Shown here one piece after another: positions 1,142-37,760 of a DNA stretch of 64,000 nt (its first letter is position 1; each line of letters opens with the position of its first letter). Origin of the DNA: Shigella phage SSG23; sequence record PQ351811; one strand, 5' to 3'. Below the pieces are notes generated by a model. It was not told the DNA's origin. It saw only the letters and a program-made list of their open reading frames with translations, and ran no database searches. Position numbers and translations under genes: made by a program.

Positions 1142-1675
1142 GTGTCTGATTATGTAAACAATAAAGAGCTTTACGAAGAAATTTGTCGTTGGAAACAACG
1201 AATTGCAGCCGAAGGTCGACAAGTGCCAATGAGCAACCAAATCGGCCTAGCAATTATGCAAATCTCTAAAAATCTATCACGGCGTTTTAACTTTTCTGGC
1301 TATAGTCAAACGTGGCGCGAAGAAATGATCGACGATGGAATCGAAGCGGCGGTCAAGGGTTTGATTAATTTTGACGAGACAAAGTATAAAAATCCTCATG
1401 CTTACATTACGCAAGCGTGCTTTAATGCCTTTGTACAGCGCATTAAAAAAGAAAGAACAGCAACCGCCGCAAAATACAAATATTTTGTGCATCATGTGTA
1501 TGACGAACGCGACGCTGATATGTGCCAGATTGCGGATGAGGCATTCATACAGGACATTTACGATAAGATCAACAACTACGAGGAATCGGTCAATAAACCG
1601 AAAGCGCCAAAGGTTGAAGATGTATTGACCGAGGAATTGCCTAGCCTGGACCAATTTTATGAGATTGAAAATTAA
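1142..1675 (+). CDS. 55: late-transcription sigma factor gp55
   Basis: Strong match to T4 gp55 ([50 protein letters not shown]). GTG start at 1142 preceded by GAGGG. Confidence 0.9.
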
Positions 1676-1892
1676 CATTTCCCGTTTGCTGGAAGAAGCA
1701 GAGTTTGAAACTGACCTTGTGCCGTATTTCTCCAAATTATTTTTGAGAGATTGCGGCGTTCCGGTGATTATCGATCCGTGTAATATCAAGTCACCGGATC
1801 TTGAGGTCTTGACGGGTACAATCTCACATAGCTATAATGTATCAGAAGATGAATTTTCTTTAATCATCGACTATATCCCAGAAGGAAAATAA
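1659..1892 (+). CDS. hypothetical small protein
   Basis: ORF fills the gap after gene 55; overlaps the 55 stop by 17 nt; no recognised motif. Confidence 0.3.
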
Positions 1893-34454: not shown

Positions 34455-34464
34455 AAATAGTTGT

Positions 34465-34749: not shown

Positions 34750-35508
34750 ATGAAAAACATTATCGCTGCTATCGTTCTTTCTGCTACTGCTTTCGGTGCT
34801 AATGCTGCGTCCTTTGATTGCACTAAGGCTACTACCAAATCAGAGAAGTTTATTTGTGCTAATGAGTCAATCTCCGCACTGGATTCTAAACTTCATGAAG
34901 TATATGTTAAGGCCGTTAAGATTGATCCGTCTCTGAAACAAGAGCAACGTAACTGGAATAAAACTGTTCGTGATACTATGATCAATATCGGGCAGATTCA
35001 GCCACTGGAGGCTGTATATAACGCTCAAATCCAAAACTTGATGAATGTATTACCTAAAGAAGAAACAGCGTCAGAAAGCGATTCAGAGACTTCTGCGAAG
35101 GTTGAAAAAGAACAACCGAAACAGGAAGCAAAAGTGGTAGAAGAACCGAAGGTTGAAACTTTTACTTATCAATGCAACATTCGCTATGAGTGGAGTATTA
35201 AAGATGGAATTTCCACCAAAATTAAAGAAGCGCCACTGTATGCCAAATATGGAAATCAACCAGGAGATCTTCAAGTAACAATTAAAAATGGGGAAATGGT
35301 CGATTTTGTATACATTGATGAATACAACGTACACAAAGCAAACGTACAAGAAACCGTTATGACTAAAGGCGGGTTTTATAAAAATGTTGGCAAGAAAGAT
35401 CTATATGAATACTCCGTTTTCGAACCAAACGACGGAACTATTCGATTTGAAAAACGTCATCCTACATTCGGTGGCGCAATTGATGTAGATCAATACGTTT
35501 GCAAGTAA
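34750..35508 (+). CDS. secreted protein with DUF1311/LprI-like N-terminal domain
   Basis: Signal peptide MKNIIAAIVLSATAFGANA followed by SFDCTKATTKSEKFICANESISALDSKLHEVY, resembling the lysozyme-inhibitor LprI N-terminal signature. Confidence 0.55.
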   Translation: MKNIIAAIVLSATAFGANAASFDCTKATTKSEKFICANESISALDSKLHEVYVKAVKIDPSLKQEQRNWNKTVRDTMINIGQIQPLEAVYNAQIQNLMNVLPKEETASESDSETSAKVEKEQPKQEAKVVEEPKVETFTYQCNIRYEWSIKDGISTKIKEAPLYAKYGNQPGDLQVTIKNGEMVDFVYIDEYNVHKANVQETVMTKGGFYKNVGKKDLYEYSVFEPNDGTIRFEKRHPTFGGAIDVDQYVCK

Positions 35509-35519
35509 GAGGTTAAATT

Positions 35520-35798
35520 ATGCAATTCAATAACATGAAGATCACAAAAGATTGGTGGGATGCTATGAGAGCTAACGACCGGATCGGAATTGGAAAGGCA
35601 GAAAAGACAGTTGTTATTGTCGAGTATAAAGCGACGCAAGATCTTTTAATTAAGGAACTTATTCGAGCGGGGAGCTATCAAACACCGGAGGGTCTTATTG
35701 ACATGATGGTTGATAACATGTATAGTGACGAACCGCCAAACATTAAACAACATTACAAGCAGTATTACCGAAAGTGGCAGAAGTATAACCGAAAATAG
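35520..35798 (+). CDS. hypothetical protein
   Basis: 92-aa ORF. Confidence 0.45.
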   Translation: MQFNNMKITKDWWDAMRANDRIGIGKAEKTVVIVEYKATQDLLIKELIRAGSYQTPEGLIDMMVDNMYSDEPPNIKQHYKQYYRKWQKYNRK

Positions 35799-35821
35799 TT
35801 TGTTGACGTGAGGATTATATT

Positions 35822-36013
35822 ATGGTAATTTTTAATCGCGATGGTATCATAGTTCGGCAACACCCATTCCTTGAATACTATCAGGTTGAACAATGGGGAT
35901 ACGGGGATTGCTCGCGCTCATACGGTCAAAGCTGGAGATACCGTACAGTTTTTGAATCAACTAATATTGACAAAGTACGACAGAAAGTTTTAGAACTTCT
36001 TAACGATAAGTGA
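35822..36013 (+). CDS. hypothetical protein
   Basis: 63-aa ORF. Confidence 0.4.
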   Translation: MVIFNRDGIIVRQHPFLEYYQVEQWGYGDCSRSYGQSWRYRTVFESTNIDKVRQKVLELLNDK

Positions 36014-36023
36014 GGATTACATC

Positions 36024-36392
36024 ATGGAAATTCAAAACAATTACGAAAAATGTGTTATTATCAATGATCTGCAACGTCAATTGCACCACTACGAAACCGA
36101 TTATAAGACAGCAACCAAAACCGGAAAACTGAAAGTGTGGGAAGTTTGGTATAACCGAAACTATCTAGGCAGTATCCACAAACTTGATCGCAGTGATGTT
36201 TATACAATGCATGTAGGCGCTTGCGGTGAATCGGATGTAGCATTTAATTTCATGGAAGCACTTGCATTCTATGTAGAATATCTGGTAGACTATATCGAGT
36301 TGGAAGAGGAAGTGGTAGAATTGCTTCCTCCACCGGAAGAAGCGCCGGAAGCAACTATCCTTAAAGCATTAAAGAAAATCTTTGTTAAGTGA
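36024..36392 (+). CDS. hypothetical protein
   Basis: 122-aa ORF. Confidence 0.45.
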   Translation: MEIQNNYEKCVIINDLQRQLHHYETDYKTATKTGKLKVWEVWYNRNYLGSIHKLDRSDVYTMHVGACGESDVAFNFMEALAFYVEYLVDYIELEEEVVELLPPPEEAPEATILKALKKIFVK

Positions 36393-36400
36393 GGTGAACT

Positions 36401-36733
36401 ATGAAAAATGTACTGATTGTATGGGAACTGATTCCAGAAACTACCGAATTGTACATGGTACAGGTTGACGATAAAGAATTTGAAATTCTGAAACGCGTCA
36501 ACTGCAAATATATTAACATTGATGACATGACCCCAGAAATGGACTATGTAAACTATGCTCTCATGCAGCCTAGCTGGATTATGGATGAAACTAAAGCAGA
36601 TGCCGAATCGCTGGGTGTACCGGAAGAAGTATTAGCGAAATGGCATCAATTCAAAGTTGAGATAAAAGAGGGTGAACCGTTTATCCCTAGCGGTATGATC
36701 GACGCGGTGATCGTAACAGGTTTTCATCTGTAA
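36401..36733 (+). CDS. hypothetical protein
   Basis: 110-aa ORF. Confidence 0.45.
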   Translation: MKNVLIVWELIPETTELYMVQVDDKEFEILKRVNCKYINIDDMTPEMDYVNYALMQPSWIMDETKADAESLGVPEEVLAKWHQFKVEIKEGEPFIPSGMIDAVIVTGFHL

Positions 36734-36745
36734 GGGTATTCTATA

Positions 36746-37078
36746 ATGTTTAATTATGACAAATATGAATCATGGAAAGCATCCGAACTGAAAGAGGCAG
36801 CGCGGTTAATCACACCGCGTCTTTATCCGGTACTGTTTAGCGCCGATAAAGTAACAAGGGAAGTAAACGAGGCGCTATCGGTTTTAGGTTATCTAATCGA
36901 TAAAGTAGAGAAAACATCGGTATTCACAAATAGTGTAGAATATACCCGTTATCGAGTGTTTTTAGATTCCCTGCTCGTTGTCATTAAGGCGCTAAATGAT
37001 CATAACTACACCATGAACATGACGAAAATAATCGACGAAGCAAGAATTATGACAGAGAATATTTTCGGAAGATTTTGA
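36746..37078 (+). CDS. hypothetical protein (tandem paralog A)
   Basis: 110 aa; C-terminus IIDEARIMTENIFGRF parallels the next gene. Confidence 0.45.
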   Translation: MFNYDKYESWKASELKEAARLITPRLYPVLFSADKVTREVNEALSVLGYLIDKVEKTSVFTNSVEYTRYRVFLDSLLVVIKALNDHNYTMNMTKIIDEARIMTENIFGRF

Positions 37079-37080
37079 TT

Positions 37081-37191
37081 ATGAAAGATGATGAATCATT
37101 GAAAATTGCACTGGTTATTCTATTACAAGGTATAGAATTAGCAAACCACGAAAAAATGTTGATACAACAACGTGAAATTATGAGAGGTTGA
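37081..37191 (+). CDS. hypothetical micro-ORF
   Basis: 36-aa ORF between the two paralogs. Confidence 0.25.
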   Translation: MKDDESLKIALVILLQGIELANHEKMLIQQREIMRG

Positions 37192-37193
37192 TT

Positions 37194-37508
37194 ATGAGTG
37201 ATATTAAAACCGATGAAGAAATGCAGGATATTGCAAAGGAATTAACCACCATCATGATCCGTCGCGGATCGTATAATGCAAAAACCATTATCGATGAAGT
37301 CAATACAGCGATTAAGGCAATCGAGAAAGTAAAGTCAGACGTTGCATTTGAAAGATACACATGGGAAGATATTCGCAATCGAAGCCGCTATAATTTCTTT
37401 GTTGATTGTATTATGTCAATGGTTGAACATTACGGGCATAGCATGAATGACATTATCATCGATGCACGTAAGCTGGCAGAGAATGTTTACGGGAAGTTTC
37501 CAGAATGA
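37194..37508 (+). CDS. hypothetical protein (tandem paralog B)
   Basis: 104 aa; C-terminus IIIDARKLAENVYGKF parallels 36746..37078. Confidence 0.45.
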   Translation: MSDIKTDEEMQDIAKELTTIMIRRGSYNAKTIIDEVNTAIKAIEKVKSDVAFERYTWEDIRNRSRYNFFVDCIMSMVEHYGHSMNDIIIDARKLAENVYGKFPE

Positions 37509-37753
37509 AATTAGAGCAAGCGATTGTTTATTTTGAGATGGGCTATGATATTGCTCGTGTAGAATGGGAAGATGGTGATTTTGTTCGATTGATTGATCTT
37601 CCAGAAACAGCTATTGCACTGGTCAAAGTAGAAAACGGCGTACAACGAAATTACGCGTTTTCTGACGAAGACAAACAAGCCGATGACTGGTACGCTACCT
37701 GTTTTCATCATACAGCGTCAAAATTCGATTCAGGCGCGTCTATGCGTCAATAA
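37505..37753 (+). CDS. hypothetical protein
   Basis: 82-aa ORF; last + gene before the convergent late block. Confidence 0.4.
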   Translation: MKLEQAIVYFEMGYDIARVEWEDGDFVRLIDLPETAIALVKVENGVQRNYAFSDEDKQADDWYATCFHHTASKFDSGASMRQ

Positions 37754-37760
37754 AAAAGAA

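Follow-up and report, generated by a model that had tools for sequence, protein, structure and literature searches.

In phage T4, the region around asiA, arn and motA encodes two small proteins that act by binding host proteins; AsiA, of 90 aa, is an anti-sigma factor that binds region 4 of sigma-70, and Arn is an anti-restriction protein. Multi-allelism combined with presence or absence within one genus is typical of arms-race loci. Among the T4-type phages, hyperplastic regions have been described, and in RB49 and phi1 modular shuffling is mediated by PeSL (Arbiol et al. 2010 PMC2839356; Comeau et al. 2014 PMC4122927). The locus presented here lies in a 64,000-nt stretch of DNA of Shigella phage SSG23 (PQ351811), which we analysed as a whole and call the window, and it is made up of gene A, a micro-ORF and gene B. 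At face value it is ordinary: two hypothetical early genes of a T4-type hyperplastic region, already joined in one PHROG. Its behaviour fits the known hyperplastic early regions of T4-type phages, with which it shares both the phage group and the insertion, deletion and replacement of small early ORFs between genomes that are ~95% identical. Unlike PeSL cassettes, A, the micro-ORF and B are not flanked by a promoter and stem-loop in a scan that used promoter and terminator consensus sequences rather than the PeSL consensus, and exchange is instead bounded upstream by the conserved Shine-Dalgarno junction of B and downstream by a coding 3' end that is likewise conserved. The exchange of B amounts to allelic replacement inside an operon, not to the movement of a PeSL-flanked cassette, and the locus represents a clean, well-delimited case of such exchange in which three parts reassort. 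The grouping of A with B was already implicit in PHROGs; what is new relative to the phrog_9457 record is the allele structure and the assortment of cassettes.

Over the 2.5 kb around A, the micro-ORF and B the window matches Shigella phage SFHK24 (PQ351812) at 100% identity and another 57 genomes of Krischvirus (RB49-like Straboviridae) at 92-93%. All three are annotated as coding sequences in the SFHK24 record, as CDS0183-0185, and they belong to a string of small plus-strand genes that extends from rIIB and topoisomerase II as far as the convergent holin gene t, after which comes the distal long-tail-fibre gene. The string is tightly packed, with short gaps and overlapping stop and start codons, the latter being frequent throughout the operon. 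Given that the RB49 annotation describes the gene two positions 5' of A as similar to the T4 12.8-kDa protein of the asiA-motA region, and that homologues (p259) of this gene, which in the window is the 122-aa ORF at 36024..36392 (+), carry the Phage_T4_Y16F domain (PF26821), the locus corresponds to the T4 early region beside gene t; a Pfam scan of the window copy of this ORF gave no match. It resembles the T4 asiA-arn-motA region in its early genes convergent with holin t, in its place 3' of topoisomerase gene 52, in its Y16F-like neighbour and in the small proteins encoded at both sites. A consensus scan finds sigma-70-like promoter matches upstream at 34464 (12/12), 34688 and 35698, their number being no greater than expected from shuffled sequence, and no promoter- or terminator-like site on the plus strand of 35727-37760. 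This pattern fits an operon.

Paralogy, family range and predicted fold

A (36746..37078, +) encodes 110 aa and is the orthologue of RB49p257, whereas B (37194..37508, +) encodes 104 aa and is the orthologue of RB49p256. The preliminary description had reported a tandem pair of roughly 105-aa paralogs with parallel C-termini and a 36-aa ORF between them. Its coordinates are exact, the intervening ORF is present at 37081..37191 with an ATG start, and both C-termini are there (IIDEARIMTENIFGRF and IIIDARKLAENVYGKF), the similarity extending over the whole proteins. The open reading frame list takes B back to a TTG at 37188, but a GAGG Shine-Dalgarno sequence at 37184-37187 suits the ATG at 37194. 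By BLASTP, A and B are 27% identical over 98 columns (E=6e-8). Their local Smith-Waterman score of 83 compares with 28.0 ± 5.1 for shuffled sequences (z=10.8); 0 of 2000 shuffles reached 83, so the paralogy passes, by far, the shuffle comparison that the preliminary description had set for it. Both proteins match phrog_9457 at full length, A with E=2.6e-42 (residues 7-110 on profile positions 1-105 of 107) and B with E=1.5e-35 (residues 8-104 on positions 7-107 of 107), and this PHROG, which has no assigned function, contains RB49p257 as well as RB49p256. Invariant family columns are E-V-N-x-A in helix 2, R-Y-x-x-F in helix 3 and Y...M...A...EN..G in the last helix. A and B are confirmed as genuine ancient paralogs, and both are real genes under purifying selection.

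The family is narrow. A profile search of 1.84e9 representative proteins returns only 3 genuine clusters of phrog_9457; three further matches to long representatives (P0035-37) were judged spurious, being repeat proteins aligned in several short stretches. In a tblastn search of 50,697 phage records the matches are confined to 58 Krischvirus records, and in IMG/VR scans B retrieves two ECD7-type loci only and A none. At the level of sequence similarity that such searches detect, the family is shown to be confined to Krischvirus (RB49-like, T4-related) phages. A search of the literature library by locus tags, by PHROG identifier and by Krischvirus combined with anti-defence or Thoeris returned nothing on the family.

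The family proteins, of ~105 aa, are predicted to be soluble, near-neutral to mildly acidic and all-helical, with four helices. Structure prediction, which the preliminary description had proposed, places these helices at matching positions in the two AF2 models, with moderate confidence: residues 9-25, 33-60, 64-86 and 92-107 in A (pLDDT 68.7, pTM 0.62) and 7-23, 29-49, 57-79 and 84-99 in B (pLDDT 68.4, pTM 0.44). A has a GRAVY of -0.14 and a pI of 6.6; the GRAVY of B is -0.48 in the window copy and -0.15 to -0.56 across the alleles checked, with a pI of 5.2-5.8. A BFVD search with the B model finds an A-type protein (probability 1.00, E=2.8e-3), and searches of the PDB and of folds with A and B gave no informative match, the best PDB profile match, an Lrp/AsnC-type regulator, lying in the noise at E=0.74. 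Pfam, NCBIfam and PADLOC scans of A and B yield nothing significant; the partial PADLOC and NCBIfam matches (AbiEii, MTase_II, Csx1, CcdB and GapS4b, all E>=0.002) are far under the cut-offs. The two sequences carry no catalytic signature.

Allele classes, exchange of B and the origin of the tandem

The copy-number comparison in related phages that the preliminary description had suggested gives B in 58 of 58 Krischvirus records, A in 48 and the micro-ORF in 45. B is the universal, multi-allelic and constant member of the family. A is the optional member, conserved where it occurs: 45 records carry allele class A1, that of the window (95-100% amino acid identity), 3 carry A2 (69%), and the 10 others have no tblastn match at E<=1e-3. 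Within A1, ω is 0.03-0.14, and between A1 and A2 dS is 0.5-1.0. In two metagenomic kvi-type loci (L021 and L022, positions 1501..1806) A2 is called at 101 aa with an unrelated N-terminus (MEGDRTERGSTVAVNPALP...), which suggests that the 5' end of A is frameshifted or misassembled in these contigs.

The alleles of B are much more diverse. That of the window, class B2a, is 100% identical in SFHK24 only; its identity is 80% to Makalu, 74% to the ECD7 group, ~52% to 44 RB49-type records, 46% to the kvi group and 33% to the metagenomic protein P0034. The alleles of B fall into four or more deeply diverged classes, with 33-52% identity from class to class, set between flanks that are ~95% identical. 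Between alleles dS is 0.45-2.5 and ω 0.13-0.42, compared with a dS of 0.02-0.25 and an ω of 0.02-0.1 for the genes flanking A, the micro-ORF and B. The B alleles are under purifying but relaxed selection; positive selection on B was not detected, ω exceeding 1 nowhere and staying at 0.13-0.42 even for close alleles and in the variable part of the gene. Given that synonymous sites are near saturation despite flanking genes that are ~95% identical, the allelic diversity is old and imported by recombination, not made in place.

The exchanged segment has sharp edges. When genomes are compared in a sliding frame of 100 nt, the region is 93-100% identical apart from two islands, one at 35520..35798 and the other at A, the micro-ORF and B, where A and the micro-ORF behave as indels and the first ~225 nt of B drop in identity while the last ~90 nt recover. 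The upstream edge is the junction GAGAGGTTGATT at 37182..37193 (+), which holds the Shine-Dalgarno sequence of B; immediately 3' of it identity to RB49-type genomes falls from 90-97% to 45-62%. GAGAGG or GAGG, followed by 5-6 nt and an ATG, precedes B in every architecture, whether B comes after the micro-ORF, A or p258. The variable two-thirds of B, codons 1-75 (37194..37418, +), cover helices 1 and 2, the loop and the start of helix 3; their nucleotide identity is 45-62% to RB49-type genomes and 71-80% to Makalu and ECD7, against 93-100% in the flanks, and their ω is 0.14-0.31. In the C-terminal helix region (37419..37508, +), whose motif Y..M..II.DAR.LAENVYGKFPE is common to A, identity returns to 77-95% and ω is 0.00-0.29 over the 29 codons; the invariant family columns Y, M, A, N and G fall here. 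This region is likely to be both the downstream recombination anchor and the structural core of B. B alleles are swapped by homologous recombination between genomes otherwise ~95% identical, the conserved Shine-Dalgarno junction serving as upstream anchor and the conserved C-terminal coding region of B, or the Tad2-like gene that follows it, as the likely downstream anchor.

The two allele classes of A and the micro segment are optional cassettes that assort independently. The window combines A1, the micro-ORF and B2a. In phages ECD7, Makalu and relatives B stands alone, straight after the upstream gene, and in kvi A2 and B lie 9 nt apart with no micro-ORF between them. Metagenomic loci add further combinations: A2, micro-ORF and B2a (L023), A2 and B2a' (L018), A2' and B2 (L020), A1, micro-ORF and B2b (L019), and B4 alone (L006). 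The window and L023 have B in common (dS=0, 1 amino acid difference), whereas their A alleles, A1 and A2, differ with a dS of 0.6 and their flanks with a dS of 0.15; this pattern is a direct example of recent lateral exchange of B.

How did A and B come to stand side by side? The preliminary description had proposed a local duplication followed by divergence. Paralogy and tandem arrangement stand; the rest has to be revised, in that the split is ancient, the B alleles are old and imported by recombination, and A is optional. A recent local duplication diverging in this lineage is excluded by the data. We also doubt the broader reading, that an in-situ tandem duplication in this lineage was followed by divergence of the copies through sub- or neofunctionalisation. 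It is true that A and B, of similar length, follow one another on the same strand with collinear similarity, that kvi-type B retains an A-like N-terminus (MFNIDD.. versus MFNYDK..), and that in a neighbour-joining tree the A alleles form one clade and the B alleles, except that of L006, another. Yet A and B alleles are 21-32% identical, a value not above that of some pairs of positional B alleles (34%), and the single-copy B of L006, whose identity is 34-42% with other B alleles and 30-32% with A, falls on the A side when the tree is midpoint-rooted. These identities and the tree indicate that the A/B split is comparable in depth to the split among alleles at the B position, or goes beyond it. 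Further against duplication in place, flanks are ~95% identical while the alleles are near synonymous saturation, A is absent from 10 of the 58 genomes and from L006, the modules reassort freely, and the tandem is accounted for just as well if a divergent allele was captured through illegitimate recombination when phages co-infected a cell. No remnants of a duplication junction, such as repeated flanks, were seen at A and B beyond motifs of 10-20 nt. The data are compatible both with duplication in situ, if ancient, and with the capture of a divergent allele in tandem during a mixed infection, and A may equally be a captured divergent allele or an in-situ copy. We hold the evolutionary and anatomical account of A and B as a whole, that of ancient paralogs with an exchangeable B and optional companions, to be very probable.

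The micro-ORF segment

The micro-ORF (37081..37191, +; 36 aa, RB49p256.1, phrog_17009) lies inside a ~105-nt presence/absence segment that runs between the stop codon of A and the Shine-Dalgarno sequence of B. It is found in 45 of 58 Krischvirus records, the same number as carry A1, the two lists having been compared by totals rather than record by record. It is missing in kvi and in L018, L020 and L021, where the gap between A and B is 9-10 nt, and in L023 it occurs together with an A2 allele.

Is it a gene? It was put into the RB49 annotation as ORF256.1 by Arbiol et al. (PMC2839356) and is annotated in RB49, JSE, SFHK24 and others. The frame is open in 13 of 13 genomes read, and a TGAnnATG junction couples it to A. 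The segment also varies about half as much as synonymous sites do, which means that it is under some constraint. A genuine small-protein gene, possibly under diversifying selection, is nonetheless a reading that we consider somewhat doubtful. Among 11 genomes the polymorphisms of the micro-ORF are 2 synonymous and 9 nonsynonymous, with no codon-position bias, whereas those of A (22:9), the Tad2-like gene (22:5) and p258 (22:3) pool to 66:17 (Fisher p=1e-4); a test for synonymous excess in these 11 genomes detects no purifying selection on the peptide. Its length is decided merely by the B allele attached: with B2 alleles the ORF has 36 aa, and with the B1 allele of RB49-type genomes it has 41 aa and overlaps B. 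No good Shine-Dalgarno sequence lies 5' of its start, it is dispensable in 13 of the 58 records, and several annotators leave it out. The micro-ORF is better described as a ~105-nt optional indel segment, a putative gene whose protein-coding status is not demonstrable.

Other identities were tried for the segment. A 13/14-nt match between codons 7-11 of A and codons 4-8 of the micro-ORF raised the idea of a remnant third family copy; it was dismissed as chance, since the micro-ORF shows no similarity to the family by protein alignment (z<=1.7) or by family HMM (bit scores ~0). A structured RNA was likewise rejected (fold z=-1.8, no Rfam match), as was a promoter, the plus-strand scan showing no promoter-like site, and Pfam, NCBIfam and PADLOC scans of the micro-ORF gave nothing significant. 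Both the junction from A to the micro-ORF (37070..37089) and that from the micro-ORF to B (37183..37202) carry TTGATTATGA, a stop codon, two bases and a start codon, 113 nt apart. This repeat may reflect the reuse of one translational-coupling junction, or be a trace of the insertion of the ~105-nt segment.

Possible functions and the Tad2-like neighbour

The start codon of the next gene overlaps the stop codon of B (ATGA). This gene (37505..37753, +) encodes 82 aa, does not belong to the A/B family and matches Thoeris anti-defence 2 (PF11195) with 28.4 bits and E=2.4e-6, the gathering cut-off being 25 bits; the match takes in positions 1-71 of the 73 in the profile. It is highly conserved, with an ω of ~0.05, and the order B, Tad2-like gene, convergent holin t is found in every locus read, including the divergent metagenomic L006.

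The overlap of stop and start, and an order that is invariant even in L006, could suggest that B serves the Tad2-like sponge as an accessory or partner subunit; alternatively, A and B could form a heterodimer, and the C-terminal motif common to the two would fit contacts through the conserved C-terminal helix in either complex. We regard these readings as improbable. Overlapping stop and start codons are commonplace throughout the operon. The Tad2-like gene holds an ω of ~0.05 while B alleles diverge to 33% identity, so the two do not co-vary. Characterised Tad2 sponges are homo-oligomers that need no partner. Against a heterodimer stand the independent assortment of A and B alleles and the cases of ECD7 and Makalu, in which B functions with no A present.

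A role analogous to that of T4 AsiA, the small helical anti-sigma factor acting on sigma-70 region 4, must also be weighed. A and B occupy the position that asiA has in T4, where this early gene is convergent with t, they are of comparable size (~100 aa versus 90 aa) and they are predicted to be all-helical, and no AsiA homologue is detectable in the 64-kb window. However, A and B show neither sequence nor fold similarity to AsiA: the hhalign probability is 0.4%, no AsiA chain is present among the PDB profile matches at E<=10, and no AsiA-like fold was found. Membership in the AsiA or Arn family is not supported, and we consider even functional analogy highly improbable.

Position, multi-allelism and the Tad2-like neighbour lead us to suggest, tentatively, as the likeliest of the functional readings, that A and B might be early accessory proteins that act by binding, not by catalysis, on a variable host or defence factor. 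The conserved C-terminal helix and the core of B would supply the fold, the variable surface formed by its N-terminal and central parts would bind a polymorphic target of host or defence origin, in counter-defence or in host takeover, and A would supply a second specificity. Like the polymorphic counter-defence loci, among them those of Tad2 sponges (PF11195) and the T-even internal-protein locus, this locus is multi-allelic, with presence and absence within one genus, and a Tad2-like gene adjoins and overlaps B. It differs from them in that the family has no known anti-defence activity, in that PADLOC matches are insignificant and in that ω stays below 1. More speculative still, and in our judgement rather unlikely, is the specific proposal that B, with A as an optional second specificity, represents a previously unrecognised early counter-defence or host-factor-binding family in which each allele neutralises a different variant of a polymorphic E. 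coli or Shigella immunity or host protein, B and the overlapping Tad2-like sponge together making up an anti-defence module of two genes. Taken jointly, evolution, anatomy and function make up a best explanation that we think reasonably probable. B is in any case a candidate, beside the Tad2-like gene, for a determinant of host range or counter-defence in Krischvirus phages, several of which have been isolated for therapy or biocontrol. Should B alleles prove to decide which specific host defences a phage is sensitive to, the locus would help to predict the outcome of phage-host encounters.

Two further features of the same region deserve mention. The 252-aa protein encoded at 34750..35508 (+) among the early genes begins with a signal-peptide-like N-terminus (MKNIIAAIVLSATAFGANAASFDC), and its homologues show a faint match to LprI (PF07007); although coded among early genes, it may be secreted or periplasmic. 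The island at 35520..35798 (+), a 92-aa ORF (phrog_15915), is a second dimorphic site in the operon: it is 98% identical to the Makalu allele and ~52% identical to the 95-aa allele of RB49, TB34, ECD7 and kvi, with a dS of 1.3-2.3 between flanks of 93-100% nucleotide identity.
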